A DNA stretch of 32,000 bases from Candidatus Saccharimonadota bacterium (GCA_002952755.1 CP025011.1:390001-422000), one strand, 5' to 3'; shown: positions 1,622 through 32,000, counted from the first letter of the stretch. Program-made: numbers and translations. Notes: a model not told the origin generated them from the letters alone.

Positions 1622-2476
1622 TTATTCTTCGTGGACTGCATGCTCGCCATGTCCTGGAATAGCTGTGCCCAAGCTCCATAGCATTTCAAAAAAATGACGC
1701 TGGGCGTTAGCAATTTCCTGGTTGTATACCTCAATGCCAAAGATTTCGCCGTTTTGCCAGTTGTAGTAAGCGACGACATCATCGTACGTGATGGTAGAGT
1801 GGGTTATATGAAAGGTGGTGCCGGGTAAAAGGCGACCTTCCCAAAAGCGGAGCTTCTCGTTATCGTGGTCCGCGTACCAATCCCGTTGGGTGGCTAGGAA
1901 GTGTTCGCCAACGAGGCTGCGAAAGCGCAGTTCGTTCTGGTTGCAGCGTGCCACCCACCGTTCAAAAAATGCCAGGTTGGTCTTATTTTGCATATTTTCG
2001 TAGAGTATCGACAAGGTTTCGTTGCGAGCTTTGGTCTGATTCCAAAACATCTGTTTAACGCCTTCATTACCCCGGTAAAACTGCACATGTGTGAGGGGTG
2101 AATGCAAAGTTTGCGGCTGAAACGTGTCTTGCAACGCCAAGAAATCTCTTTGCAGATCGCGTATCTCCTGTTCTTTGCGGGTAATAAGTATCTGGAGGTT
2201 GCTGATTGGCGCGGCTTTATATATCTTCCGTTTATCGTATGTCTCGATCTCGACCAGGTGTGAGTCGGTTAGGGTGTCGATAAGTCGATACAAGCGGGTC
2301 CGCTCAATCTTGGCATTACGCGCGAGCTGCAGCAAGCTCTGCGGGCCATAGGCGTTGAGCGCCAAATAAGTGTCGGCAATCTCCGGCTCGAGGCCGAGTT
2401 TGGCAAAATATTCGTGCATAGGGCTAATATCGCCGGACATCCGCCTATTGTCTAACAGGTGTGCATATTTGCGCAA
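1622..2476 (-). CDS. TrmB-family helix-turn-helix transcriptional regulator (start uncertain: 2476, 2440 or 2419)
   Basis: The N-terminal block FAKLGLEPEIADTYLALNAYGPQSLLQLARNAKIERTRLYRLIDTLTDSHLVEIE matches the TrmB winged-helix pattern (lGLs..Ea.vY..L...G..ta.ela....i.r..vY..L..L...glv). It is followed by a coiled-coil and an effector-type C-terminal domain. Confidence 0.7.
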   Translation of the reverse strand: MRKYAHLLDNRRMSGDISPMHEYFAKLGLEPEIADTYLALNAYGPQSLLQLARNAKIERTRLYRLIDTLTDSHLVEIETYDKRKIYKAAPISNLQILITRKEQEIRDLQRDFLALQDTFQPQTLHSPLTHVQFYRGNEGVKQMFWNQTKARNETLSILYENMQNKTNLAFFERWVARCNQNELRFRSLVGEHFLATQRDWYADHDNEKLRFWEGRLLPGTTFHITHSTITYDDVVAYYNWQNGEIFGIEVYNQEIANAQRHFFEMLWSLGTAIPGHGEHAVHEE

Positions 2477-2568
2477 CAGATATATTACTGTTCGCCTACT
2501 GCCTACACTCCGGGGTGAAGCATGGCCAAAAGGTCGGCATAACTACCGAAAGGGAGGTGTATTTTTGT

Positions 2569-3990
2569 ATGTCCAATTTTCCGGAAACTGACATAACAAA
2601 CAGAGTATTGAGCCTTGGCATACCTGCCGAGTCGGCAGTAGTCGTTGGAGATACAGCATTGGAGTCGGCGCTCGGAGCTGATGTCTACCGTGCCGATACG
2701 CTCGAAGTGGCATTAAGTGAAGATGCCTACCGGTATATACGAGTGCAGCCAGGGGTAGAAGAGACGGTGTTGTCGAATGGCGACTATTGCCTTGCTGGTG
2801 ATGATTTTACCGCCAGTCTCCAGTGGGCCGGACGCACTCCACGCGAGCTGCGGCAAGGCGGCTATGTGCAGGAAGGTGTTGCGTTTGCCGGATTGCCTGA
2901 TGTGTATGGGCACAAACAGCAACGCGGTACCGAGCAAGACCAGCGCGATCTGGCTCAACTCCGCGGTCATCTGTATGGCAATCGTCTATTGCCCGCAGTA
3001 ATGTTGGCAGGCGAGCGGTCGTTTATTACCGATTGTGTGCCAGAACATCTCCACGAGCGGCCAGAATTAGAAGTTGCCGCCAATGGTTTATATATTGTGC
3101 GCACGGTATTCGGGCATGAAGATGGCGAGATCCACACCTATAGTGGCAGCGCCGAAGAGGGGCCCGTGCCAGCCAGTTTCCATGCCTGGCGCCACACTGC
3201 GCTTGGCACGCGCGACGGCCAGCGTAACATAGATGTATTGAACCAGGAGTGCGTAAACGCAGGTCGCCCGCCTCTGTTTTCGGACGACGATCGCATGGCC
3301 ACGCTGGTTGGCTACTCGTGTCACGATGCTATTCTCGGCCATGGACGCCGCAGGGTTAATCCCGAGGGGCACGACGAACGGCAATCGGCCGATCTCGCCG
3401 TTCGACACTTAGAAGCGGCAGGTGTAACCAAGGGTAACGTGCTCGAAGGAGCTCATGCTGGCGGTATGGCAACTACTTACAACGAGATTACCCGAAGGCA
3501 GGATGTCGACCCGAGCAGAGGGTATGTACATATCCAGGAAAACACCGCCGGCAGCGATTTTTCGGGCTTAAGACGGAAAGATGGGGCCTTGAATGCGCTG
3601 CGATTAGCTCCTGAGGATTTGGGCCGGACTGGTGCAGGCTACGACCAACCGCTTGCAAGGTTGGTTGAGGCGCTGAACGCAGAGCAGCCTGCGGGTACTC
3701 CTCCCATTCGTATAACTTCGGCGAGCGATGCATTCCGCTTGATCGATGCTCATCCCGATTTTCCGGCTACGGTGAATGGAGAACATATGACACTCCGCGA
3801 GGCGACTGCCCGGCACATCGCAGGCAACAAAGCCTTCTTCCTAAAACACCAGCCGTTTGAAAGCTGGCGGATTGGGGAGCCAGGCATCACGATTGAACAT
3901 GCCGAGTGCCTGGCTGCAATCGCCCAAGGGGTAGCCGCAGGAGAACTAAAACTCGAAGAAGCGCACAATGAGCTTGTTGCTCTACAGTAA
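2569..3990 (+). CDS. Hypothetical 473-aa cytoplasmic protein; possible HD-type phosphohydrolase motif in the C-terminal half
   Basis: ATG at 2569 is preceded by GGGAGG (2552-2557), so it is preferred over the track start 2461, which overlaps the TrmB gene. The motif string FHAWRH..(about 40 aa)..SCHDAILGHG..EGHDERQSADLAVRHLEAAG..GAHAGG resembles H..HD..GHe..sa......L in HD domains. No signal peptide or TM. Confidence 0.6.
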   Translation: MSNFPETDITNRVLSLGIPAESAVVVGDTALESALGADVYRADTLEVALSEDAYRYIRVQPGVEETVLSNGDYCLAGDDFTASLQWAGRTPRELRQGGYVQEGVAFAGLPDVYGHKQQRGTEQDQRDLAQLRGHLYGNRLLPAVMLAGERSFITDCVPEHLHERPELEVAANGLYIVRTVFGHEDGEIHTYSGSAEEGPVPASFHAWRHTALGTRDGQRNIDVLNQECVNAGRPPLFSDDDRMATLVGYSCHDAILGHGRRRVNPEGHDERQSADLAVRHLEAAGVTKGNVLEGAHAGGMATTYNEITRRQDVDPSRGYVHIQENTAGSDFSGLRRKDGALNALRLAPEDLGRTGAGYDQPLARLVEALNAEQPAGTPPIRITSASDAFRLIDAHPDFPATVNGEHMTLREATARHIAGNKAFFLKHQPFESWRIGEPGITIEHAECLAAIAQGVAAGELKLEEAHNELVALQ

Positions 3991-4042
3991 AGCCGCCTTC
4001 CCGGTTGTGTTTTACCGGCCAATGTTAGAAAATACGTACAAT

Positions 4043-4813
4043 ATGAGATGGCGACGGGGGTTAGGAACGCTTGGCGGGGTGGTGTCGGTGTTTGTGTTGG
4101 TTGGCAGCCCCTTGGCTTCAGCGCAATCTTCATCCAGTCATTACCAGGTCAACGAAGTTTTTTTTGGGAGCGGCGGTGAGCTCAATAGTTGCTCCGCAAG
4201 TTATTGCTCAAAACAAACCGCCGGCGAAATTGCTGCAGGCAACGCTGCCGGAACGGCGTTCAAAACACAAGCCGGCTTTAACACGCAGCGGGATCCCTAC
4301 TTGGCTTTTAGTGTTGCGGGGGGTTCAACCGACCTCGGTACACTTAGCACCGCTGCAACGGCCACGACCACCAGCACCTTCGCGGTAAAAACCTATCTAG
4401 CAAGTGGGTATGTCGTGCAGTTCGTATCTAATCCGCCCTCGGTGAACGGGACAATTACTCATCAGCTGACGCCACTATCGTCCCCAACGGCATCAGCCAT
4501 CTCATCAGAACAATTCGGTCTGAACCTGGTACAGAATAATGTGAACTGTGCCGATGGTATCCATCATGCTCCGGCTAATTTTGGCGCCGCGCCAGTACAG
4601 GTGCCCGATAATACCTTCAGTTTTGGAACGGTTGCCTCCGATTACGGCACGTGCGGCCTTTTTAAATATGCCAAGGGCGACACTATCGCCAGTTCTACTA
4701 AAAGTTCCGGCGAAACCGATTATACGGTGTCATTTATGTACAATATTAGCCCGCTTACCCCGGACGGATTGTATACGTTTAACGGGACACTTGTGGCAAC
4801 CTCGACGTTCTAG
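4043..4813 (+). CDS. Secreted beta-rich surface subunit, single-domain member of the three-gene paralogue family
   Basis: Signal peptide MRWRRGLGTLGGVVSVFVLVGSPLASA|QS. Shares PYLAFSV..DLGTL, ASGYVVQF, EQFGLNLVQN and the terminal GLYTFNGTLVATSTF-stop with the C-terminal halves of the 5805 and 6948 proteins. Contains several Cys, consistent with an extracellular location. Confidence 0.75.
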   Translation: MRWRRGLGTLGGVVSVFVLVGSPLASAQSSSSHYQVNEVFFGSGGELNSCSASYCSKQTAGEIAAGNAAGTAFKTQAGFNTQRDPYLAFSVAGGSTDLGTLSTAATATTTSTFAVKTYLASGYVVQFVSNPPSVNGTITHQLTPLSSPTASAISSEQFGLNLVQNNVNCADGIHHAPANFGAAPVQVPDNTFSFGTVASDYGTCGLFKYAKGDTIASSTKSSGETDYTVSFMYNISPLTPDGLYTFNGTLVATSTF

Positions 4814-4817
4814 TTTT

Positions 4818-5372
4818 TTATACAAGTGGTGGTAATCGATATCCGGCGAGTTTATTGAGCTGCCTGGCTAGACGTCTGTACTGAAGCGAAAATGGCGCAG
4901 TACCTGACAGCGTTATGATACTTTCGTTAGATTGGGGCGATTCAAATGCGGCGGCATATTGATCGAAAATATGCGGGGGGATAATCCGCACGACCCGGTC
5001 GACAAAGCCTGCGTCACGAGCAGTGCCGGCGCGGGCTTTGGCCGTCGCCACAGGAACCTGTAGCCAGATTCCCACTGCCCAGACACCGTGTTCATGGGCG
5101 AGCGTGGCAATCGCAGTACGCTGCGACACTGTGTTAGCTGCAGCGTCATATAATACTGATTGGCCCGCTCGCAGCGCGCGGCTGGCACGCTCATTCATTT
5201 CGTCATACACTATCCGCCGCTCATGGACGGAGTACGTTGGAAAGCGGAATAGCTCTAATCCAATCTTGTCACCACGTAGGTGTTCTCCTTGTAACACACT
5301 CGTTAAACTGCGCGCTAGCGTCGTTTTGCCAGCTCCAGGGTAGCCCACCGTATAAAAAAGTATCGGCTCCAT
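4818..5372 (-). CDS. P-loop NTPase / small-molecule kinase-like ATP-binding protein (AAA_33 / zeta-toxin-like fold class)
   Basis: 184-aa ORF with N-terminal Walker A ILFYTVGYPGAGKTTLA. Size and layout are typical of stand-alone P-loop kinases. Convergent with the 4043 gene, 4 nt between the stops. Confidence 0.75.
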   Translation of the reverse strand: MEPILFYTVGYPGAGKTTLARSLTSVLQGEHLRGDKIGLELFRFPTYSVHERRIVYDEMNERASRALRAGQSVLYDAAANTVSQRTAIATLAHEHGVWAVGIWLQVPVATAKARAGTARDAGFVDRVVRIIPPHIFDQYAAAFESPQSNESIITLSGTAPFSLQYRRLARQLNKLAGYRLPPLV

Positions 5373-5449
5373 CTGTTTGCATAATAGTTCACCCTTGACC
5401 TTTTCTCAAGAGAACATTATCTAAAAATGAGCAATGGCTGCTATCTCTA

Positions 5450-5487
5450 CCTCTCCTTTCGTCATCCCGGGCTTGATCCGGGACCCC
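5450..5487 (+). repeat. REP-like small palindromic intergenic element, copy 1
   Basis: Sequence is cctctcctttcGTCATcCCGGgcttgatCCGGgacccc. Stem TCCCGG (5465-5470) pairs with CCGGGA (5478-5483). It is similar to copies at 9989-10022 (+) and 10072-10104 (reverse complement). Confidence 0.6.
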
Positions 5488-5729
5488 TTCTATCAGTCTT
5501 CCACATGATCGGACTACAGGATATTGAATTAAAGTCCGGTATGACAATAGGAGGTTGCTTCGGAAGTGAAGGGCTTTAGCAACCATTTGTTTATTGACCC
5601 GTGCAGACTCCAGGCCGTACCATAAGGGGAATTAGTTAAGGGTTGGTGGCGATTCTAACGGCCATGCCGATATTTACATTTCCCAAACGGGTTTTTAACG
5701 ATTTATTAATATCTCGTATAAAAGTTCTA

Positions 5730-5759
5730 TTGATTGGTAAATCATAAGCATGTTACTAT
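5730..5759 (+). promoter_or_regulatory. Candidate sigma70-type promoter for the 5805 surface-protein gene
   Basis: TTGATT (5730-5735), 18-nt spacer, TACTAT (5754-5759), in an AT-rich tract. The gene also has a Shine-Dalgarno AGAGGAGA a few nt before ATG 5805. Confidence 0.3.
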
Positions 5760-5804
5760 TATGATATAAGTTATACAATAAAACCAAACAACAGAGGAGA
5801 ACAC

Positions 5805-6935
5805 ATGAAAATACAGAATAAAGTGGGACGCACGCTGTATGCGGTCGCTGCTTTTTTGCTGGTTGTTACCGGAATATCCTCGGGCTTTATTGGGCATGCA
5901 TCCGCTAATCAGGTGACGGCACGAAGCATAACTATCAGCAACTCCAATGGCGGCACGAACAATGTTGCCTATACACTTGCCTTTACAACGGCTACCACAA
6001 GCAATGTTGGCGGTATTGTGGTTGATTTTTGTTCCAACGACCCTATTATTGGGGACTCGTGTACTGCACCGGCAGGTTTTGACGTTAACAAATCAACCAC
6101 TACTATCGGTACTCAAGTGGGTATTACTGGTAACTCTATAGACACAACTAACAGTACTGCCAACAAACTGATCCTAACCCGGACTGCCAGCTCGATATCT
6201 ACGGGTACGGCCGTATCCATTCCTTTGGGGGATGGTTCAACGACAGGGTTCCATAATCCAACCGCTATCGGTAGCTACTTCGCACGCATTTACACCTATG
6301 CTACGACTGCTGCAGCTCAAGGCCACAGCACCAACAGCCCAAGTGGCTACGTAGACTATGGTGGTATCGCACTGTCGACAGCTGCAGTTATTAACATTAC
6401 AGCCAAGGTGCAGGAAACGCTGAGTTTCTGTGTGTACAAGACTGCCTGCGGCGATGACCCCAGCTTTACCCTCGGCCACGCTGTCGGTACCGCCACCGTT
6501 ATCGATAGTACTGCTGTGGACACGCAGCCGGCTAACTTTAGTATTTCGACAAATGCCAACGGGGGTGTAGTAGTGCGTATGAAAGGTGACACCCTCAAAT
6601 CGGGCTCTAACACTATTGCTGCTGCTGGCTCTTCTGCTGCAACAATTACAGCAGGCACAGCGGCTTTTGGTGCGCGGGTCTCGACATCAGGCACAAACAT
6701 TACGCCAACAGCACCTTATAACAACGGTTCTGGTACGCAATATGGTCTTGATATAACGACGAGTAACACGCCAAACACTAATGTCACCAGTACCTATGGC
6801 GGACAGATTGCTACGTTAAGCGGTCCAACTACGGCATCGGTGAGCACAGTCACTTTTGCTGCTACCGCCAGTGCAACCACGCCCGCCGGTACGTACACTG
6901 CGGCAGAACAACTGATTGCGACTGGTACCTTTTAG
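5805..6935 (+). CDS. Secreted two-domain beta-rich surface subunit (paralogue family)
   Basis: Signal peptide ..FIGHASA|NQ. The N-domain motif VVDFCSNDPIIGDSCTAPAGFD ... STANKLILTR ... GSYFARIYTYA parallels the 6948 protein. The C-domain has LSFCVYKTAC, FSISTNANGG and ends GTYTAAEQLIATGTF-stop. Strong SD. Confidence 0.85.
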   Translation: MKIQNKVGRTLYAVAAFLLVVTGISSGFIGHASANQVTARSITISNSNGGTNNVAYTLAFTTATTSNVGGIVVDFCSNDPIIGDSCTAPAGFDVNKSTTTIGTQVGITGNSIDTTNSTANKLILTRTASSISTGTAVSIPLGDGSTTGFHNPTAIGSYFARIYTYATTAAAQGHSTNSPSGYVDYGGIALSTAAVINITAKVQETLSFCVYKTACGDDPSFTLGHAVGTATVIDSTAVDTQPANFSISTNANGGVVVRMKGDTLKSGSNTIAAAGSSAATITAGTAAFGARVSTSGTNITPTAPYNNGSGTQYGLDITTSNTPNTNVTSTYGGQIATLSGPTTASVSTVTFAATASATTPAGTYTAAEQLIATGTF

Positions 6936-6947
6936 GATTCCAAATGG

Positions 6948-8006
6948 ATGGGTTGTTTCTCGCGTAACATAATAAGCAAAACAGCACTTTATTCTTTGAT
7001 GGCTGCATCTTTTGTCGGGATGGGGCCATTTTCTTTGGCGCATATTTGGGCTGATCAGATCGCGCCGAGGTCACTCACATTGAGCGATTCACTAGGTGCG
7101 CAGCATGGTGTGACCTACAAAGTAGCAATGGGTATTCCTACGACGGCGACCGTTGGCTCGGTGCGTGTCCAATTTTGTTCCAATACATCGCTCACCGATG
7201 ATCCATGCGTGGCGCCCGTGGGTTTTGATGATAGTGGTGCGGTATTAAGCACTCAAACCGGAGCGGCTGGATTTTCTATCTCGAATAACTCCACGGCTAA
7301 TGAACTAATTTTAAGTCGTCCGCCCATCGTGCAGGCTCCGGTAATAGCGACCTATACATTCGACAATATTACCAACCCAACTGATGGTGGCTCATATTAT
7401 GCCCGCGTCTATACCTATGCATCGAGCGACGGATCAGGCGCCTCAACCGACGACGGAGGCTTGGCTTTTGCTATCAACCCATCATTGTCGGTAAGCGCTG
7501 AGGTGCCACCGTATCTGACCTTCTGTGTGGGCGAAAGTATCACGGGTTTGGATTGCACGAGCGCTACCGAGCCATTTTCCGACTTGGGTGATCTTACTCC
7601 GACTACAACGAGCGCCGCGCAGTCACAACTACTCGTCGCTACAAATGCTGGCAATGGTTATAGCATGTATGTACTCGGCAATACCATGACGTCAGGTAAT
7701 CATACGCTCACGGCCATGAACGGCAACACGGCCCAAAAGGGGACGAGCCAATTTGGCTTGAACCTACGAGCTAATACTGTGCCTGCAGTGGGCCAGGATA
7801 CGTCTGGCCCCGGCTTTGCGGCTGTGACGAGTGGCTATAGCCAGCCAGATCATTTTAGGTTCCTTTCGGGCGACAGCCTCGCTTCGTCGCCATCTGCCGA
7901 CGATTATCGAAAATATACCGTTAGCTATGTTATCGACGTTGCCGCTAATCAGCCGGGCGGTGTGTATTCCACCACGCTCACCTATGTTTGTTTAGCAAAT
8001 TTTTAA
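6948..8006 (+). CDS. Secreted two-domain beta-rich surface subunit (paralogue family)
   Basis: Signal peptide ..SLAHIWA|DQ. Contains VRVQFCSNTSLTDDPCVAPVGFD, STANELILSR, GSYYARVYTYA, PYLTFCVGE..DLGDL, GNGYSMYVLGN, SQFGLNLRAN, and ends GVYSTTLTYVCLANF-stop. Starts 12 nt after the preceding stop. Confidence 0.85.
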   Translation: MGCFSRNIISKTALYSLMAASFVGMGPFSLAHIWADQIAPRSLTLSDSLGAQHGVTYKVAMGIPTTATVGSVRVQFCSNTSLTDDPCVAPVGFDDSGAVLSTQTGAAGFSISNNSTANELILSRPPIVQAPVIATYTFDNITNPTDGGSYYARVYTYASSDGSGASTDDGGLAFAINPSLSVSAEVPPYLTFCVGESITGLDCTSATEPFSDLGDLTPTTTSAAQSQLLVATNAGNGYSMYVLGNTMTSGNHTLTAMNGNTAQKGTSQFGLNLRANTVPAVGQDTSGPGFAAVTSGYSQPDHFRFLSGDSLASSPSADDYRKYTVSYVIDVAANQPGGVYSTTLTYVCLANF

Positions 8007-8047
8007 TGTTTCTGTTACCATAAATGCAAATATAAGTGAGGGAAAAC

Positions 8048-9046
8048 ATGATTCAACGCAGAATCCTGACCGCAGTTGTAGTGGTTATGATTGCTGTCAG
8101 TGCGGTAGTGCCGGCACTTAAAGGTACGGCTTTTGCAGCGCAAACGTCACTGGTGGGCGGTAACGCGCTCAAGATTTCGCCGGTGCGCCAGGACCTGACG
8201 ATGGACCCCGGGACGAGCAAGAAGCTGGTCGTCTTTATTACCAATGTCACAAGCGTCACCACAACACTACACATGGCGATTAACGACTTTGTAGCCAGCG
8301 GCGACGAAAGTGGCAAGCCTAGCGTTATTCTCGACGAGAATCAGTATGCCCCTACGCACAGCTTCAAACAATTCGCTACACCCGTTAAGGACTTCACGCT
8401 CAAGGGCAACGAAACTAAAGAGATTGATGTAGCGGTTAACATCCCCAAGACCGCTCCCGGCGGTGGCTACTACGGCGCCATCCGTTTTGAACCGGCAAGT
8501 GCGTCGGGAGACAGGAGCCTGAACTTATCTGCTAGTGTCGGTTCGCTGGTGCTACTCAAGGTGAATGGCACGATCACCGAAAAAATGACCGTCGCCAGCT
8601 TTGATGTGCAGCAAAATAAGAAGAGCGCCTTTTTCTTCACCAGCAGCAAAGGTTTGACTAACGTCGTACGCTTTCAAAACAGCGGTAACGTGCAGCTAGA
8701 ACCTTTCGGCAAGGTTATCTTGAAGCGTTTCGGCAAGCAAGTCGCCGAATACGAAATTAACAACGAATCACCACGTGGTAGCGTACTGCCCGACAGTATT
8801 CGTCGTTTTGATACATCACTCAACAAAGTGAGCTCGTTTGGTAAATTTACTCTCAGCGGCAATTTCGGCTATGGCTCCTCTGGCCAGCTGGTATCTGCAT
8901 CGGCAACCTTTTATGTTATTCCGGTTACGATGATAATCCTTATCGGTGCAGCTATTGTAGGGTTGGTTATACTGATTTTTGTCCTACCGAAACTCATCCG
9001 GTCGTACAACAGCCGGATTATCCGCAACGCCAACCGGCGGCGCTAG
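8048..9046 (+). CDS. Membrane-anchored DUF916/DUF3324-like (CscA-like) protein; candidate chaperone or assembly factor of the locus
   Basis: ATG 8048 is preceded by GAGGG. Signal peptide ..KGTAFA|AQ. Contains LKISPVRQDLTMDPGTSKKLVVFITN, APGGGYYGAIRFEP, and a second beta domain (VRFQNSGNVQLEPFGKV..VLPDSIRRF). Ends in a single C-terminal TM helix VIPVTMIILIGAAIVGLVILIFVL plus an Arg-rich tail. This matches my memory of DUF916+DUF3324 proteins in WxL clusters. Confidence 0.75.
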   Translation: MIQRRILTAVVVVMIAVSAVVPALKGTAFAAQTSLVGGNALKISPVRQDLTMDPGTSKKLVVFITNVTSVTTTLHMAINDFVASGDESGKPSVILDENQYAPTHSFKQFATPVKDFTLKGNETKEIDVAVNIPKTAPGGGYYGAIRFEPASASGDRSLNLSASVGSLVLLKVNGTITEKMTVASFDVQQNKKSAFFFTSSKGLTNVVRFQNSGNVQLEPFGKVILKRFGKQVAEYEINNESPRGSVLPDSIRRFDTSLNKVSSFGKFTLSGNFGYGSSGQLVSASATFYVIPVTMIILIGAAIVGLVILIFVLPKLIRSYNSRIIRNANRRR

Positions 9047-9059
9047 GCAACTTGAGATA

Positions 9060-9959
9060 ATGGGGGTGCATGTGAAGAGAGTCGGTGACTGGCGAGCGAT
9101 AATTGCCGCTCTGACGGTTACCTGTCTGCTCTGTACTCCTGTCTTAGAGGCGCATGCGACTATTCCTCCGCCTGGTCCGGCCTCTGGATCGGTCGGTTTG
9201 CAAGGCAAGGTCCAAACACCACCGCCCAAGAACCCGGCAACTATTGGCACTCCTAGCAATGGCCAGTCGTTCACTACAACACCTATTACGGTAACCGGTC
9301 TATGTACCACTGGCTTATTGGTAAAGATTTTTGCTAATAACGTGTTTGTAGGGTCGGTATTATGTGCGAACGGCAGCTATTCGTTGCAAGTGTCTCTATT
9401 GGATGGACGTAATGACTTGGTGGCTCGCATTTTTGACAGCTTAGACCAGGCTGGGCCGGATTCCAATATTGTAACAGTTAGCTACAATACCCAATTCGCC
9501 ACGACGGGTATTCCTATTTTGAGCCTCAGCAGTGTGTATGCGCGACGCGGTGCCAATCCTGGTGAGCAGTTGCAATGGCCCATTAGCATTAGCGGGGGTA
9601 CGCCCCCATACGCGCTCAGTATGGACTGGGGTGACGGCAAACCGACGTCGCTGTACAGTGCGCCGATTAGCGGCACGATCACGACGACGCACGTTTACAG
9701 TGCTCCAGGTACCTATGTGGTGATTGCCAAGGCAACCGACGCCAATGGATTAACGGCCTTTCTGCAGCTTGTAGGGCAGGCCAACGGCGCGGTCACGCAG
9801 TCGGCGACTTCATCGTCGGGTAACAGCGGAAGTGGCGCGAGCAGGACAGTCGTGGTGTGGATTCCGGCTGCAGCCAGTATTCCTCTCATTGGTATTTCGT
9901 TTTGGCTGGGCAGACGATTCGAACTATTGAGTTTGCGCCGCCATCTCGAGCGCCGTTAA
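9060..9959 (+). CDS. Secreted Ig-like + PKD-domain protein with C-terminal TM anchor
   Basis: Signal peptide ..PVLEAHA|T. Ig-like segment ITVTGLCTTGLLVKIFANNVFVGSVLCANGSYSLQV. PKD signature ISGGTPPYALSMDWGDGKPT...THVYSAPGTYVVIAKATDANG. C-terminal WIPAAASIPLIGISFWLGRRFE.. forms a TM helix plus basic tail. An alternative GTG start lies at 9072. Confidence 0.75.
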   Translation: MGVHVKRVGDWRAIIAALTVTCLLCTPVLEAHATIPPPGPASGSVGLQGKVQTPPPKNPATIGTPSNGQSFTTTPITVTGLCTTGLLVKIFANNVFVGSVLCANGSYSLQVSLLDGRNDLVARIFDSLDQAGPDSNIVTVSYNTQFATTGIPILSLSSVYARRGANPGEQLQWPISISGGTPPYALSMDWGDGKPTSLYSAPISGTITTTHVYSAPGTYVVIAKATDANGLTAFLQLVGQANGAVTQSATSSSGNSGSGASRTVVVWIPAAASIPLIGISFWLGRRFELLSLRRHLERR

Positions 9960-16745: not shown

Positions 16746-18500
16746 ATGAATACGGCAGGCACCAACAACGGCAAAGATGTCATATACATAGATGTTGAGG
16801 ACGAAATTACCAGCATCATCGATAAGGTGCGCGGCAGCCAGCAGAAGATTGTAGCACTGGTACTCCCCAAGCGTGCCAGTGTGCTGCAAAGTATTGTCAA
16901 TATGAAGCTGCTCAAGCGAAGTGCCGACGAGGCTAAAAAGAATTTGGTACTGATAACCAGCGAAGCAGGGCTTATGCCTCTTGCCGGCACCGTGGGGTTG
17001 CATGTGGCCAAAAGTTTACAGAGCAGGCCCGAAGTTCCTGATGGACCTGGCCGTTTCGAAAACAAGCCGGAAATGGTTGATGAGGACGAGCCTGCAGATG
17101 AAGCGCCCCTGTCTGCGCCTATCGACAAGACAAAAACCGTTGGCGAACTGGCCGGTGCGGCAGTTATGGATCAAGAAGCCGACGACGCTGAGGATACCAT
17201 CGAATTGGGTGACGAAGACGAACCTGGTGACGACGAAACACCGGTTGTTGATATGGGTAAACCTAAGAAAGGGTCCGATAAAAAGCTAAGAGTACCCAAC
17301 TTCAACAAATTCCGACTACTCCTAATACTTGGTGGTGTACTGCTTGTAGGCCTGATTATAGCGCTGTACGTTTGCCTCAAAGTACTACCCAAAGCCCATA
17401 TCGTTATTAAGACAGATAGCTCGGCCATCACCAGTAATACTAACTTAGTACTAAAAATAGATCCGGCAACGACGCTCGACACAAAGAGCGGTAGGATGTT
17501 AGCGAGCATCCAGCAAACTCAGAAAACACAGAGCCAGCAAGTGCCGGCTACCGGTCAGCAGAATAACGGTACCAAGGCGACAGGCAATATTAAGTTCTAT
17601 AACTGTAACCAGGCTGATACACTTGCCGGCACCATGCATACTATTCCAGCTGGTACTGGCGTGACAGCCAATGGCCATACCTTTATTACGAATCAGGATG
17701 TGATTGTACCGCCCAGCCACTTTACAGGTGGGGGCGCCTGCAAGAGCGATCTGCCAAGCTCTACTATTGGCATGACGGCACAGGTTGCCGGTACTGCATC
17801 GAACCAGTCGGCTACTAACTACAGCGTGGCAGGTTATTCCAGTATCACCGGCGTAGGCACTGACACTACAGGCGGTACCGACAATATCACCAAGATCGTT
17901 ACCCAGGCAGATATCGACAGTGCAAAGCAAAAGATTACGGCGCAAGAAACCGATCCAATCAAGCAAGCACTCAAGAGCAGTCTTATTGCCAAGGGATTGT
18001 ACGCCGTGGATGCGACCTTCAATGCTGGCACGCCAGACGTTAAAACGAGCGCCAACGTGGGTGATACTGCCGATACGCTCACTGTTACCGAAGTGACCGC
18101 CTATACTATGTTTGGCGTCCACGAAAGCGATTTGCAAAAGATTGTTGCGAGCGACGTCAATACGAAGATTGATCCATCCAAGCAGAGCATCCTCGATTAC
18201 GGCTTGGCTAATCCAGTCATTACGGTACAGAGTCAGGATCAAAATGGTGCAACAGCTACTATGCAGGCAACTGTTATTGCGGGTCCCGATCTCAAAGTTG
18301 GACCGATTATCCAGGCAGTAGCAGGTAAGAAGGCGGGAGATGCAACTGCAGTCATCAAAGCAAACCCGGGTGTTACTGACGTTACGGTTACATACAGCCC
18401 GTTCTGGGTAAGCTCTATTCCAAAGAACGCCAGCAAAATCACGGTTGTTATTGATAAACCAACCACCACCACAACCACCAATGCAAACGCCAAGCCCTAG
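16746..18500 (+). CDS. Bitopic membrane protein: cytoplasmic N-domain, acidic linker, TM helix, about 370-aa extracytoplasmic domain (possibly the family often labelled baseplate J-like in CPR genomes)
   Basis: Starts 2 nt after the ftsA-like stop. N-domain VIYIDVEDEITSIIDKVRGSQQKIVALVLPKRASVLQSIVNMKLLKR. Acidic stretch DEDEPADE..DQEADDAEDTIELGDEDEPGDDE. TM helix FRLLLILGGVLLVGLIIALYVCL. The ectodomain has ATGNIKFYN..LAGTMHTIPAGTGVTANGHTFIT..AQVAGTASNQ. The baseplate J resemblance is from memory only. Confidence 0.7.
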   Translation: MNTAGTNNGKDVIYIDVEDEITSIIDKVRGSQQKIVALVLPKRASVLQSIVNMKLLKRSADEAKKNLVLITSEAGLMPLAGTVGLHVAKSLQSRPEVPDGPGRFENKPEMVDEDEPADEAPLSAPIDKTKTVGELAGAAVMDQEADDAEDTIELGDEDEPGDDETPVVDMGKPKKGSDKKLRVPNFNKFRLLLILGGVLLVGLIIALYVCLKVLPKAHIVIKTDSSAITSNTNLVLKIDPATTLDTKSGRMLASIQQTQKTQSQQVPATGQQNNGTKATGNIKFYNCNQADTLAGTMHTIPAGTGVTANGHTFITNQDVIVPPSHFTGGGACKSDLPSSTIGMTAQVAGTASNQSATNYSVAGYSSITGVGTDTTGGTDNITKIVTQADIDSAKQKITAQETDPIKQALKSSLIAKGLYAVDATFNAGTPDVKTSANVGDTADTLTVTEVTAYTMFGVHESDLQKIVASDVNTKIDPSKQSILDYGLANPVITVQSQDQNGATATMQATVIAGPDLKVGPIIQAVAGKKAGDATAVIKANPGVTDVTVTYSPFWVSSIPKNASKITVVIDKPTTTTTTNANAKP

Positions 18501-20473: not shown

Positions 20474-20826
20474 TATCCCCGGTAATGGCGTTTACGCCAG
20501 TGAGGGGCGGCTACGATTCGGGTTGCAGCACAGAACGCCGGTCCTGTGATGTGGTAGGTTGCGGGATCTTATATAACCCGAGTGTCCGTTACGATAGTTG
20601 TGCAAGTTGCGATAATATGTCACTATATATGGATGATCACCCCATCTGAGGGGCTTTATAGCTTGCGTGCCGACAATACAGATGCTTCCCAGGAGCATGA
20701 GGTAGTGCTGCCCAACTCCGCCCCTTTAGTTATATATCCAGATAGGAATGCGCGGAGCATAGTCCATGCTGCGGTAAAGTCTGCCCTGGGTGTATCGTGG
20801 GAAGTGGAAACCGACCCGAGCGGCCT

Positions 20827-21591
20827 ATGGCCGCATACGAGCGAACTCTCGACGCTTTGCCACCGAAAGAAAGATCCTACGCCGCCCATAGCTTGGTAAT
20901 CGGCGATATGTCGCCTACAGTTAAAGCGTTAATCGATAACGCGCTTGAGACTCCTTCTAGAGAGGTGGGTTTTAATACGTTCCAGGAGCTAATCCTGACC
21001 GCTTATGCAGCAGCTGCTGGATATTACAAAGAAGCTTACCCTGCCCGATATCAATATGCCAACAAGGCACATAAGGAGGCTCGTGGCGGTATCGGAGATG
21101 CGTATGCATCTATAGTGGCCGGAGGAGGGTCCGGGAGTATAACCAGTATAGCCGCTATGCGTTCATTGCCCTACTATTACGCGCAACGATATGGCGGTAC
21201 ATTCGACGCTTTTCCTAAAAAAGAAGTGCAAAGTAGGCTATTCGATACTGGCTTTCGACTCGTACTTCTGCTTGCTAGCCAACAAATGACTGTTTTTGAC
21301 GGAAGTGAGGAATTTACGGTGACAACGCCTACGGGCGCAATGATAGATCCCAGGCTGGTAGATTTCGCCCCAAACGGTACGGTTACCGCTTCGCCAGAGC
21401 TGGAGCATAGGCTCAAATCAATTGTCATGACAGCCGGTGGCACGCCGTGGTTAGGGTGTCCAATATTATTTGACGCTCGAGCCCGCGAAGGTATGAAAGG
21501 AATATATTACACGTTCGCTGGCAAGATAAAAAAGAATCCCGGGAATTTTTATATGCCTAAAACGCTTGAGCCAATCCCGCCCAAAGATTAG
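20827..21591 (+). CDS. Hypothetical protein (about 254 aa; the track start is the GTG at 20797)
   Basis: Long ORF with a helical-looking N-terminus (MAAYERTLDALPPKERSYAAHSLVIGDMSPTVKALIDNALE) and no recognisable domain. An upstream ORF in another frame (20633..20899) may be a frameshifted 5' part. Confidence 0.5.
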   Translation: MAAYERTLDALPPKERSYAAHSLVIGDMSPTVKALIDNALETPSREVGFNTFQELILTAYAAAAGYYKEAYPARYQYANKAHKEARGGIGDAYASIVAGGGSGSITSIAAMRSLPYYYAQRYGGTFDAFPKKEVQSRLFDTGFRLVLLLASQQMTVFDGSEEFTVTTPTGAMIDPRLVDFAPNGTVTASPELEHRLKSIVMTAGGTPWLGCPILFDARAREGMKGIYYTFAGKIKKNPGNFYMPKTLEPIPPKD

Positions 21592-27578: not shown

Positions 27579-30389
27579 ATGAGTGAGAAGATCGTGGTTA
27601 AGGGTGCGCGGGAGCACAACCTCAAAAATATTGATGTTGAGCTGCCGCGCAACAAAATGGTGGTTATTACCGGCCTGTCTGGGTCCGGTAAATCTTCGCT
27701 GGCTTTCGATACGATTTACGCCGAAGGGCAGCGACGTTATGTTGAGTCACTCAGCTCCTACGCCCGCCAATTTTTGGGCATTATGGAGAAGCCGGATGTC
27801 GACCAAATTGATGGCTTATCTCCGGCGATCTCGATTGATCAAAAGTCTACCAGCCGCAATCCGCGCTCAACCGTCGCGACGGTGACAGAGATTTACGACT
27901 ATTTGCGCCTGTTGTTTGCCCGTATTGGTATCCCGCACTGCCCGATTTGCGGCAAGCCGGTTACGCGCCAAACAACGCAGCATATTGTCGACCAAATTGC
28001 CCATTTGCCGGAGAATGCCCGCCTGATGATCCTCTCTCCCGTCGTGGCTGACAAGAAAGGCGCCTTCGAGCACATTCCCGAGCAATATAGCCGCGCCGGT
28101 TTTGCCCGCGCACGTATCGACGGCGTAATTTATGCACTGGATGAGTTTCCGGAGCTGGACAAGAACTACAAACACACCATCGACATCATCATCGACCGCC
28201 TGGTGAACGACGAAGCCAGCCGCAGCCGCTTGGCGCAATCGGTAGAGCAAGCGCTGGAAGTTGCCGAAGGCAAGATCGTGGTCGTGAATGCCGATACGAA
28301 CGAAGAAGCGCAGTACAGCTTACTCTACGCCTGTGTTGACCACCCTGAAGTTGTGATTCCCGAGCTGGAGCCACGCACCTTCAGCTTCAACTCGCCGCAT
28401 GGCGCCTGCCCTGTCTGTACAGGCTTAGGCTCCCGACTGGAGGTCGATCCCGAGCTAGTCATCCCCAATGGGCGTTTGACGATAGCTGAGGGGGCTATCC
28501 GACCTTTTAATCGCATCAATTCTGACGCCTGGTACATGAAGAAGATGCAGGCGGTGGCCGATCGCTATGGCTTTAGTTTGCACGTGCCCACCGGCGAACT
28601 TAAAAAAGCCGATCTGGAGCGCTTGATGTACGGCACTGGCACTGAAAAATTCAAGATAACCCTTGGTGGTGGCCGGATGTTCGAGACCACTTACGAAGGC
28701 GTGGTGCCTAACCTGGAACGCCGCCACAAAGAAACCGAAAGCGAGTTCATGCGTGCCGATATCGAGCGCTTTATGGTCGAGAAACCCTGCTATGCCTGCA
28801 AAGGGCGTCGTCTGAAGCCGGAAGTGCTGGCTATCACCATAGCCAACCATTCCATTATGGATATCTGTGAAATGTCCATCGACGAAGCCATCGATTACTT
28901 TAAAGCGCTCAAGCTGAACGACAAAGAAATGCAGATCGCGGCGCTCATTCTTAAGGAAGTCTGTTCCCGGTTGGGCTTTTTGCAAGATGTGGGACTCAAT
29001 TATCTGACATTACTCCGCAGCGCGACAACGCTGTCTGGTGGTGAAGCGCAGCGTATTCGCTTGGCTACGCAGATCGGCTCTGGCTTGCAGGGCGTGCTGT
29101 ACGTGTTGGATGAGCCGAGTATTGGCCTGCACCAGCGCGACAACGACCGGCTGATTAAGACACTGAAGCATTTGCGCGATCTAGGTAACACCGTGCTGAT
29201 CGTCGAGCATGACGAAGACACCATGCGTACCGCCGACTATCTGGTAGATATCGGCCCTGGTGCCGGTGTGCATGGTGGGCATATCGTTGCCAGTGGTACC
29301 CCCTCAGAGGTGGAGCGTGATCCTAACAGTATCACCGGCCAATATTTGGCGGGTAAAAAGAAGATCGCTACGCCTAAAAAGCGCCGGGCGGGCAATGGTA
29401 AGAGTCTAATCGTTAAAGGAGCACGCGAGAATAATCTGCGCAATCTTGATGTAGAAATCCCTTTAGGCGTACTTGTAGTGGTGAGCGGCGTCTCTGGCTC
29501 CGGCAAGTCCAGTCTCATCAATGACATTTTGGCCAAAGAATTACAAGCTCGCCTGATGCGCGCCAACACTGTCCCGGGCAAGCACGACGAAATTGAAGGC
29601 ATCAAAGAGCTCGACAAAGCAATCATCATCGACCAGTCGCCGATTGGCCGTACGCCGCGCAGTAACCCAGCAACTTATACTGGCTTGTTTACTCCCATCC
29701 GCGAACTGTTTGCACAGACTCCCGAGGCAAAATTACGCGGCTACGGGCCTGGGCGCTTTAGCTTCAACGTCAAGGGTGGGCGCTGTGAGAATTGCGCAGG
29801 CGATGGAATTATCAAGATCGAGATGCACTTTTTACCGGATGTATATGTGCCCTGCGAAGTCTGCCATGGCAAGCGCTATAACCGCGAAGCACTCGAGATC
29901 CACTACAAAGGCAAAACCATTAGCGATATCCTGGAAATGACCTGCGAGCAAGCCCTAGAATTTTTCGCTAATCTGCCGGCCATCGCCCGCAAATTGGAAA
30001 CATTAGTAAATGTGGGCCTGGGCTACATTGGCCTTGGTCAATCAGCCACAACCCTTTCCGGCGGCGAAGCACAGCGCATTAAGCTCGCCAGTGAACTTTC
30101 ACGCCGTCCCACCGGCCGCACACTCTACATTTTGGATGAACCGACTACCGGACTGCACATGGCGGATGTCGATAAGTTGCTGCATGTCCTCCAGGCTCTG
30201 GTTGATACCGGCAATAGCATGGTCGTCATCGAGCATAATCTGGATGTGATTAAGAGCGCCGACTATGTCATCGACATGGGTCCAGAAGGTGGCACGGGCG
30301 GCGGGCAAGTGGTAGCGCTCGGCACCCCAGAGCAAGTGGCCAAGAACCCTAAATCCTACACAGGCCAGTACCTTAAGCGCATGCTTTAG
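27579..30389 (+). CDS. uvrA: Excinuclease ABC subunit A (UvrA)
   Basis: [55 protein letters not shown]. Zinc modules CPICG..CPVCTG and [17 protein letters not shown]. Two ABC signatures ([12 protein letters not shown] and [12 protein letters not shown]). 936 aa. Confidence 0.96.
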
Positions 30390-32000
30390 TTCGTACGACG
30401 ATATACGGCAGCTCGCCTGAGGGCGCGGCGCATATCGCGCTTGGTTTGGCGTGATATGACGTCGGTAATATTCGCCCGGCTACTTCTTTCTTGCATGCGT
30501 GCCTGTATGTCTTTGTAAGACAGATTCTCGGCAGACATCATTCCCGACAATCGTACTTGAGCAGATCGCGGTGCGTCGGTATTTTGATCTTGGCGGGTAA
30601 ATATGGTTCGGTCATCAATAGGGGTATTTGGGCTTCCAAACTGGACACGCCCTATGACTTCCAGAGCAGTTTCAAGCCATGGATTATCGCCCGTAAACCA
30701 ATCCACAGCCTGCTGACGTCGTCGACGCCGTATATATTCCGCAGCAAGTGGAGAAATCTCGGCTCCTAGGCGTAAACTACCGGCAGAGCCTGCAAGTATG
30801 CCAATGCCTTCGATAACTGTTTTTGTAATGTCTGGATGAGAGGTGGATGGTTTTTCGTACGGTGTAGGCGCGGGCGTCTTGACATCGCCTGAGGTTGGTG
30901 TGGCGTCTATGATCTGAGCGTTCTTGCCGACAACAAACTGATGTGATTCGGATTGTGAGAGCACCTTGTCGCCGTCGTTATGGAAGCCATCGGCTAGATT
31001 AAGGAAATTATCATCGCCGCCTACGCCCTTTGTTGCGAGGACTTCGGTGAAGTTAGCCACATTACAGTCTGCGCTATCCATTTCTGCTGCATTTTCGCCT
31101 ATTGCGCCGAGGATTGGGCCTATTGCGAGGCTATCGTCAGCAGCAATTAACTTTTGAGGTTTAGCGTCTGCGTATGGGGTATAACTGTAGCTCCGGGTAT
31201 TGGCAATAGCCGCGGCAACCTGTGACGCAGTAGCGTTTGTGGGCACGCCAATCTCCTGACGTATCTTGGCAACATCTTGCGTAGGAAGCGTATTCAACGG
31301 CACGCTAGTCGACGCATATCTTTGCATCTCCATAGGGCGTTCTGCGTGAACGGGGAGGGCGTTGGTAGCATGGGGATCTAGCGTATACTGAATTGCCAGG
31401 TAACCTTGGTTGCTCGGAATTTGATTGCTCACTAACAAGTGGAAGGTGCCATCTGTACGCTGGTAGATCTTTGATGGCAGTGCCTTAATGACTTTATTAT
31501 TGGTAAGATCATTAAGGGTAATGTTGGCTGCCACAATGTCACCGCCTTGCAGCACAGGCAGGCTGAAATCCTGGAAAGAGGTCTGGGGCCCGTCTGGCAG
31601 GCCGTATAGTACGCTATTACTATTTTTAGACGCAAGTGCTTGGCGGCCGTTTACTATGATGAGCTGTCGGCCCTGAGCTTCGACCGCGTTTGGCAGATTA
31701 TTGAGTTCGCGTACTGCCTCTACCTGACTTTGTGCTTCGGGCGGCACACTTGTGCCCATAGGAACGATAGCATCCCTCGAAGTTTCAAAGGTGATCCCTA
31801 ATTGTTTAAAGGGGGGAATATCACCGCTTGCCGAATCGACGAAGATGCGATCTTGGACATTCTCTATCCAGTATCCATTAGTCGAAGCGCCATTGACTGG
31901 GGACAAACCCCAAATAGCGGGATTTTTGGGGTCCAAATGTACATCGCCCATAGTAGAGCTAGCGCCCCCATATAGATTGTAACGTTGCTCGAAGTCGGCT
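30386..32000 (-). CDS. Large membrane protein with a transglutaminase-like (Cys-His-Asp) ectodomain, TM helix and basic cytoplasmic tail; the 5' end probably lies beyond the window
   Basis: The reading frame stays open upstream of the ATG at 31951 through base 31999. Candidate triad: [13 protein letters not shown] (Cys), SHQFVVG (His), IIDATP (Asp), with spacing like transglutaminase cores. Then a Pro-rich linker, [22 protein letters not shown] and RRRRRQQ. Overlaps the uvrA stop by 4 nt (convergent). Confidence 0.55.

Follow-up and report, generated by a model that had tools for sequence, protein, structure and literature searches.

A probable Pam pilus locus in an uncultured Saccharimonadales and the likeness of its chaperone to WxLIP proteins

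A 32,000-nucleotide stretch of the genome of a Candidatus Saccharimonadota bacterium (GCA_002952755.1, CP025011.1:390001-422000; hereafter the window, with positions counted from its first letter) carries, between 4043 and 9959, five plus-strand genes for secreted proteins that very probably specify the Pam pilus of an uncultured Saccharimonadales. The Pam pilus is a thin donor-strand-exchange fibre specific to the candidate phyla radiation (CPR), made with a membrane-anchored helper protein and without an usher. The locus is a new example of a system of an already characterised kind, described in 2026 in Candidatus Mycosynbacter amalyticus (bioRxiv 10.64898/2026.03.03.709456; hereafter the preprint). 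We base the identification on matches to the NCBIfam PamT and PamR equivalogs together with a Pam C-terminal domain in all three subunits, on a chaperone model with two beta domains and a transmembrane helix that matches WxLIP and then the chaperones of chaperone-usher (CU) pili, and on a gene order kept in about 50 of 56 related loci. An earlier note on this DNA, made from the sequence alone, had described a five-gene surface assembly system of csc/WxL type or resembling chaperone-built pili, and knew of no characterised equivalent. Its observation is confirmed, its structural reading was largely right and its interpretation overall is partly supported; the remark about equivalents is outdated, given the equivalog models for PamT and PamR and the electron cryo-microscopy (cryo-EM) description of 2026.

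Genes and proteins of the locus

The five plus-strand open reading frames (ORFs) lie exactly where the earlier note had placed them. They are A (PamT; 4043-4813, 256 aa), B and C (two-domain Pam pilins; 5805-6935, 376 aa, and 6948-8006, 352 aa), D (the chaperone; 8048-9046, 332 aa) and E (PamR; 9060-9959, 299 aa), so that the locus holds one of each functional type: tip, pilins, chaperone and anchor. The starts of C, D and E (giving 352, 332 and 299 aa) match independent gene calls on identical public contigs. The start of PamT at 4043 is uncertain, with alternatives at 4022 and 3968, and the protein collection searched held no copy of the exact 256-aa PamT sequence. Genes B to E are separated by 12, 41 and 13 bp, as in an operon, and gene A is set apart. 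Between A and B sits a minus-strand gene for an AAA_33 P-loop kinase (4818-5372; Pfam AAA_33, E 1e-17), which had been missed in the earlier description, and the interval is therefore not one unbroken five-gene unit. Convergent with PamT and separated from it by 4 bp, the kinase gene occupies this site, among the related loci described below, in the 14 closest relatives only; although inside the interval, it does not belong to the pilus system. Scans for sigma-70 promoters (12 versus 7.1±2.9) and for terminators (7 versus 6.4±2.5) did no better than on shuffled sequences, and we therefore base no claim about transcription units on them.

All five proteins begin with a basic and then hydrophobic, signal-peptide-like segment. 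The putative cleavage sites, with the cut marked by a slash, are PLASA/Q in A, HASA/N in B, HIWA/D in C, TAFA/A in D and EAHA/T in E, and both the N-termini and the sites were found as first reported. By a Kyte-Doolittle scan the hydrophobic region of C is weak. None of the five proteins contains an LPXTG motif or a W-x-L tripeptide, and the ORFs of the window yielded no match to families of sortases, ushers or type IV pili. The initial idea of a chaperone-pilin-like assembly lacking usher, sortase and LPXTG proteins is thus borne out, here with matches to Pam models from NCBIfam.

Four of the five proteins belong to Pam families by model match. The NCBIfam model NF058581 (Pam pilus system pilin subunit; cut-off 55 bits) matches A at residues 91-256 (142.9 bits, E 7.5e-42), B at 224-376 (91.3 bits, E 6.2e-26) and C at 208-352 (159 bits, E 8.3e-47). 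Likewise, a Pam C-terminal domain profile built from relatives matches only A, B and C among the ORFs of the window. B and C align over both domains (BLAST, 35% identity across 300 aa, E 3e-35), and the alignment of A with C covers the C-terminal half of the latter (27% identity, E 9e-12); BLAST gave no match between A and B. Each subunit has a Thr, Ser, Gly and Ala content of 44-53%. These sequence comparisons support the view, already taken in the earlier note, that the three subunits are paralogous.

At the equivalog level, A is assigned as PamT, predicted to be the single-domain tip pilin: it matches NF058579 (CPR_pilus_PamT) with 293.9 bits against a cut-off of 240, over positions 10-241 of the 241 in the model. 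After the signal peptide, its mature part opens with about 55 N-terminal residues that lead into the Pam pilin C-terminal domain, and the protein ends in ATSTF. A PamT ortholog lies 5' of the pilins in 36 or more related loci.

Protein B has a beta-sandwich N-terminal domain, a linker strand and the Pam C-terminal domain, with cysteine pairs at 76/86 and 209/215; paired cysteines in the pilins, as in PamA and PamB, speak for a Pam pilus. It is the most variable component, with a median identity of 38% to its orthologs, lengths of 292-483 aa and one to three copies in relatives. Because its sequence, length and copy number vary most, B is likely to be the main exposed shaft subunit, at the position of PamA. 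Two or three tandem B copies of 292-483 aa were seen upstream of the chaperone in the related loci L020, L032 and L057, which suggests diversification of the exposed shaft subunit.

Protein C, whose ortholog is present in 54 related loci (347-369 aa) and which is conserved both in sequence and in length, is likely to be a proximal or adaptor pilin at the position of PamE. In its AlphaFold2 model the N-terminal beta domain (42-185) has a predicted local distance difference test score (pLDDT) of about 90, the linker (187-197) falls below 50 and the C-terminal beta domain lies at 55-84. Low confidence in the linker and C-terminal domain of a modelled monomer is as expected for a domain that would need a strand from a partner. 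Conservation in the C family peaks in the linker (181-210) and in the C-terminal strands (321-352), with N351-F352 invariant, a pattern that matches the donated strand and the groove described in the preprint. Sequence searches of solved structures with the single pilin sequence or with a 44-sequence profile gave no match. A Foldseek search of the PDB with the C model returned only generic two-immunoglobulin (Ig) adhesins (SdrE, ClfB, AgI/II) at a TM-score of about 0.2, with CU tip adhesins and FimA among the weak matches and no WxL chain in the top 50; this result is uninformative on family.

The N-terminal sandwich domain showed a further resemblance in the relatives of C. DUF2808 (PF10989), a mainly cyanobacterial family, is matched there by 10 of 44 relatives at E <= 1, the best match reaching 26.8 bits against a cut-off of 25.3 (for example P0144, residues 48-161); the C protein of the window itself falls below threshold. 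If DUF2808 occurs outside the CPR, this domain of C has relatives beyond the CPR.

The last gene, E, matches NF058578 (CPR_pilus_PamR) with 399.4 bits against a cut-off of 300, and by this equivalog-level match it would be PamR, a putative RbmA-like terminator and anchor. The protein comprises a signal peptide, a conserved mature N-terminal segment, an Ig-like domain, a PKD-like domain (Pfam PKD, 26.7 bits versus 23.5), a Ser/Gly spacer, a transmembrane helix (263-284) and an Arg-rich tail, in agreement with its first description as a PKD protein with the same type of anchor as D. Conservation at residues 41-50 of the mature N-terminus is 0.71, compared with 0.2-0.4 in the signal peptide, which is consistent with the terminating donor strand proposed for PamR. 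A phmmer search of E against the PDB returned designed armadillo-repeat proteins, which we rejected as an artefact of summed weak matches between low-complexity Ser/Gly/Ala sequence and repeats. Six relatives have a second, distant PamR-like ORF 3' of alaS (E 1e-24 to 1e-36 to E), at 17936-19069 in L024, 16695-17855 in L028, 16166-17314 in L033, 14862-15923 in L038, 14945-15940 in L043 and 19121-20272 in L057; the window contains no such ORF.

When species-representative genomes were scanned with the profile of the chaperone, 56 loci were obtained, whose titles are nearly all Saccharimonadales, Saccharibacteria or Patescibacteria, with one Bacillota and a few given as 'bacterium' only. The gene set is conserved: about 50 of the 56 keep the order tail-fibre-like gene (minus strand), PamT, B (one to three copies), C, chaperone, PamR, mnmA and alaS, as would be expected if, as originally proposed, the genes belong together. 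Among loci with this order, identity to the chaperone of the window is 40-71%. Median identity to the proteins of the window is 50% for PamT, 38% for B, 47% for C, 51% for the chaperone and 54% for PamR, compared with 72% for the flanking mnmA. Across these 56 loci we thus found both restriction to the CPR and a conserved operon. The locus titled 'Bacillota bacterium' (L007, DATIJU010000009.1) carries a complete Pam-type set, its chaperone being 65% identical, and is flanked by mnmA/alaS just as in Saccharimonadales; it is probably a mislabelled or misbinned metagenome-assembled genome and not a Firmicute Pam operon.

The chaperone and the WxLIP family

Protein D passes the Pfam model PF06030 (WxLIP_PGBD, DUF916) with 34.7 bits against a cut-off of 27.3, as do 39 of 51 diverse relatives; the family is a large one, with 4164 representatives (50% clustering, E <= 1e-3), and its profile finds only one copy in the window. 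The AlphaFold2 model (pLDDT 82.8) has two Ig-like beta domains and a long C-terminal helix (293-331). This end of the protein is a single hydrophobic helix followed by an Arg-rich tail, as the earlier note had described it. In Foldseek searches of the PDB the top matches were the Enterococcus faecium WxLIP structures EfmWxLIP1 (9i1y and 9i25_C; E about 3e-12, TM-score 0.5), the 9i1y entry being free WxLIP and the 9i25 entry a WxLIP 'bound to long WxL', and the alignment with the solved WxLIP extends over 270 columns. The next relevant matches were the CU chaperones CfaA, CsuC, DraB, YadV and Caf1M (E 1e-8 to 3e-7), with low TM-scores of 0.3-0.5, and WxLIP is the closer; RbmA and generic Ig-domain proteins were interspersed in the list.

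As a direct comparison set we used Enterococcus WxL clusters from plasmids. With hhalign, the D family profile matched an annotated Enterococcus DUF916+DUF3324 protein at 97.6% over 254 columns covering both domains, and at 96.3% once the signal peptide and transmembrane segment were removed. A second WxLIP gave 61.7%, and reversed-sequence controls gave 0.1-0.2%. The second domain of D on its own gave weak signals (23.9% and 0.5%), and the DUF3324 Pfam model (PF11797) matched neither D nor any of the 51 relatives. Of the DUF916+DUF3324 layout first suggested for this protein, the DUF916 part is therefore upheld by Pfam, hhalign and Foldseek and the DUF3324 part found no Pfam match; the modelled fold and the overall architecture, and not sequence alone, support a likeness to DUF3324. 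Had D resembled neither DUF916 nor any chaperone or Ig fold, the first account would have failed, and both similarities were found.

[quoted passage not shown] WxLIP is predicted to insert a beta strand into its WxL partner (PMC10599100), which is the same kind of act as that proposed for Pam chaperones. In contrast, the conserved WxLIP motif NQIDKxxxYFDLK, in an 11-residue insertion, is lacking from D, and no homology could be detected between the partner proteins (0.2% when WxL is compared with the Pam C-terminal domain). The modelled structure and these matches support D as a putative membrane-anchored two-domain chaperone of PamC/PamD type that belongs to the WxLIP/DUF916 family. Neither WxL nor DUF916 is mentioned in the preprint, and membership of a Pam chaperone in this family is the main new lead of our analysis. 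A further step, that D is a true homologue of WxLIP and that Pam pili and csc/WxL clusters derive from one ancient assembly module of monoderms, is offered as a tentative proposal. In such a module, a chaperone anchored in the membrane would complete beta-rich surface subunits by inserting a strand and would pass them on.

Assembly, known systems and alternative explanations

The M. amalyticus pilus comprises PamA, PamB, PamE, PamT, PamC, PamD and PamR. Cryo-EM of extended PamA and PamB filaments at 2.8 and 3.6 Å (PDB entries 25PZ/25QA) revealed pilins with a nine-strand beta-sandwich at the N-terminus, joined by a single linker strand to a truncated Ig-like domain at the C-terminus, the linker of one pilin filling the C-terminal domain of the next (bioRxiv 10.64898/2026.03.03.709456). 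From AlphaFold models presented in the same work, PamC and PamD are proposed to be PapD/FimC-like chaperones with a C-terminal transmembrane helix, PamT a single-domain tip pilin and PamR a transmembrane-anchored, RbmA-like terminator. The locus described here resembles that system in its PamT and PamR equivalogs, the Pam C-terminal domain of all three subunits, the two-domain pilin layout (from the model of C and the B-C alignment), the transmembrane-anchored two-domain chaperone, Sec export, the lack of usher, sortase and ATPase, and the CPR host. Its gene order equals the PamT-PamA-PamE-PamD-PamR half of the M. amalyticus operon, as inferred from accession order.

Strand exchange was demonstrated for PamA and PamB of M. 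amalyticus, and by analogy would operate here. The chaperone role, the order of assembly, the part of PamR as terminator and host contact are what we infer from the genes, as follows. Sec would carry all five proteins across the membrane. D, kept at the cytoplasmic membrane by the helix at its C-terminus, would hold each exported pilin and fill the open groove of its incomplete Ig-like C-terminal domain. PamT, which would have the groove domain without an N-terminal sandwich domain, would begin the fibre at its distal tip, and B and then C would be joined from below at the membrane, each pilin putting its interdomain linker strand into the groove of the previous subunit. Growth would then be halted by PamR, whose conserved N-terminal strand would enter the last pilin and whose transmembrane helix would tie the fibre to the membrane. 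The fibre is probably the first contact with the host bacterium.

Several points weigh against this identification. No NCBIfam model matches D, so its equivalence to PamC/PamD rests on fold, architecture and gene position. The pilins were likened to PamA and PamB through family models and published descriptions, and B was placed with PamA and C with PamE only from the gene order inferred via accession numbers in the preprint. The source itself is a preprint whose assembly model is built on AlphaFold predictions, and for this locus donor-strand exchange, a filament and a chaperone-pilin complex are a gene-level reading. The locus has one chaperone where M. amalyticus has two, and two two-domain pilins where it has three. 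Genes for ATP synthase, which are commonly near Pam operons but not defining (bioRxiv 10.64898/2026.03.03.709456), are absent from the 32-kb window, as are CorB and MFS genes; in all of these M. amalyticus differs. It differs further in having a PamB-PamC module 3' of PamR, where mnmA stands here, in a larger PamA, of about 55 kDa (the first pilin here has 376 aa) and in having no kinase gene between PamT and the pilins.

The match of the chaperone to WxLIP raises the question of whether the locus is a csc/WxL-type surface complex like those of Lactobacillales, in which WxL-like proteins are non-filamentous and are kept on the wall by a DUF916 WxLIP, without any pilus. Indeed, the chaperone passes the Pfam WxLIP_PGBD model, among solved structures WxLIP matches it best, also in the form bound to long WxL, and hhalign gives 96-98%. 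Moreover, a small subunit, large subunits and a transmembrane-anchored two-domain protein mirror the Enterococcus loci, and subunit strands such as GYSMYV and GGVYSTTLTYV superficially resemble GWTLTA and TTYTTTIVWNL. However, the WxL Pfam domain (PF13731) is matched by none of the three subunits and by none of 44 relatives of C, and hhalign of a 140-sequence alignment of the Pam C-terminal domain against a 42-sequence WxL alignment gave 0.2%, as did another profile-profile run. Only the final beta strand was aligned ('GiYt...' with 'TYTTTIV'); such a strand pattern is common, and we rejected it as evidence. The earlier note had read GY-x-x and a terminal TF/NF at the positions equivalent to WxL; the strings are real (here GYSMYV and ...TYVCLANF, where a small WxL protein has GWTLTA and ...TIVWNLSEG) but carry no statistical weight. 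There is also no W-x-L tripeptide, LPXTG protein (CscD) or sortase, the subunits and the anchor score above the cut-offs of Pam models, and their M. amalyticus homologues form filaments, whereas none have been reported for WxL clusters in the literature consulted on them. We consider a csc/WxL-type complex improbable, and the part of the first account that called the locus one is not upheld.

The similarity of D to CfaA, CsuC, DraB, YadV and Caf1M, and the presence of CU tip adhesins and FimA among the weak matches of the pilin model, could also be accounted for by a classical CU pilus of the Pap, Fim or Csu type with its usher gene elsewhere in the genome. Pam and CU pili (Pap, Fim, CFA/I, Csu, Caf1) have in common incomplete Ig-like subunits completed by a strand of the next subunit (in PamA and PamB, according to the preprint), a two-domain chaperone, here by fold match, a tip subunit without donor strand and a terminator that ends growth. 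However, no ORF of the window matched the usher (PF00577), PapD_N or Fimbrial Pfam families, in a search that covered the window and not the genome, and at E <= 1 the Pfam scan yielded no CU chaperone (PF00345/PF02753) and no PF00419 pilin, so that the similarity is at the level of fold only. The CU chaperones are soluble and periplasmic, without the transmembrane anchor of D; Saccharibacteria lack an outer membrane in which an usher could sit, as is established knowledge and as the preprint states; and TM-scores to these chaperones are low, WxLIP being closer. The Pam pilins also differ in their extra N-terminal sandwich domain and in a donor strand that is an internal linker and not an N-terminal extension, and the Pam fibre is extended rather than coiled (bioRxiv 10.64898/2026.03.03.709456). 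A classical CU pilus is accordingly very unlikely, and we give just as little credence to unrelated secreted adhesins or wall proteins that are neighbours by chance and form no joint structure. The latter would fit the generic two-Ig adhesins matched by the pilin model and the promoter and terminator scans, but not the strict conservation of order and orientation in about 50 species-level genomes despite 40-70% protein identity, nor the C-terminal domain common to the three subunits, nor the gaps of 12-41 bp between genes 2 to 5.

Other usherless fibres were also compared with the proposed Pam pilus. TasA and the archaeal bundling pili (PMC9245690) likewise consist of Sec-exported, beta-rich subunits that form donor-strand polymers without an usher in single-membrane organisms. 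Unlike the Pam system, they have jelly-roll subunits of the Peptidase_M73 family (PF12389) and the accessories TapA and SipW, with no dedicated two-domain chaperone; a TasA-like fibre was rejected, there being no Peptidase_M73 match and no SipW. Sortase-dependent Gram-positive pili have a pilin-specific sortase and LPXTG proteins, neither of which is present.

Surroundings and meaning of the locus

Upstream of the locus, a minus-strand gene (547-1560) encodes a 337-aa, transmembrane-anchored, tail-fibre-like protein with beta-helix-like repeats, a disordered N-terminus and one transmembrane helix (64-97). It gives a weak match to a PHROG tail-fibre family (E 5.5e-4) and another to bactofilin, and a counterpart, almost always encoded on the opposite strand, lies upstream of PamT in 37 or more related loci. 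A tail-fibre-like protein is the central neighbour in the Pam neighbourhood network (bioRxiv 10.64898/2026.03.03.709456); the 547-1560 protein is probably the same protein and may be linked to the pilus system. It is followed by a TrmB-like regulator gene (1622-2476, minus strand) and a 473-aa ORF without family match (2569-3990, plus strand). Neither of these two has a counterpart in any of the 56 related loci, in which the genes that flank them usually lie side by side, and the segment 3001-4000 has the highest G+C content of the window (0.567). The region 1622-3990 looks like a lineage-specific insertion.

Downstream of PamR, the flank from 10131 to 32000 contains housekeeping genes, namely mnmA, alaS, an APH-like kinase gene, ftsA, ruvX, mltG/yceG, a LysM-CHAP hydrolase gene, obg, an exonuclease I-like gene and uvrA. 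ORFs without family match lie at 16746-18500 (584 aa), 20797-21591 (264 aa) and 30386-31951 (521 aa). Neither tRNA nor tmRNA genes were found anywhere in the window, and no Rfam family reached its gathering score there.

For annotation, our results argue for the names PamT, Pam pilins, Pam chaperone and PamR in place of 'hypothetical' or 'DUF916'. Pam pili represent a class of bacterial fibre that has only recently been recognised, and they are probably how many ultrasmall CPR episymbionts first reach their hosts. The smaller version described here, whose gene order is strictly maintained in about 50 species of Saccharimonadales, points to a core gene set and offers a simpler target for reconstitution. 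In addition, the link between its chaperone and WxLIP ties a CPR system to widespread and poorly understood surface clusters of Gram-positive bacteria, and provides a testable hypothesis on how these work. If the tentative common origin proposed above were true, WxL clusters might also use strand complementation, perhaps forming short polymers, and this locus, with one chaperone, one tip, two pilins and one anchor, would be the simplest known version of the ancient module and the best one for reconstitution.

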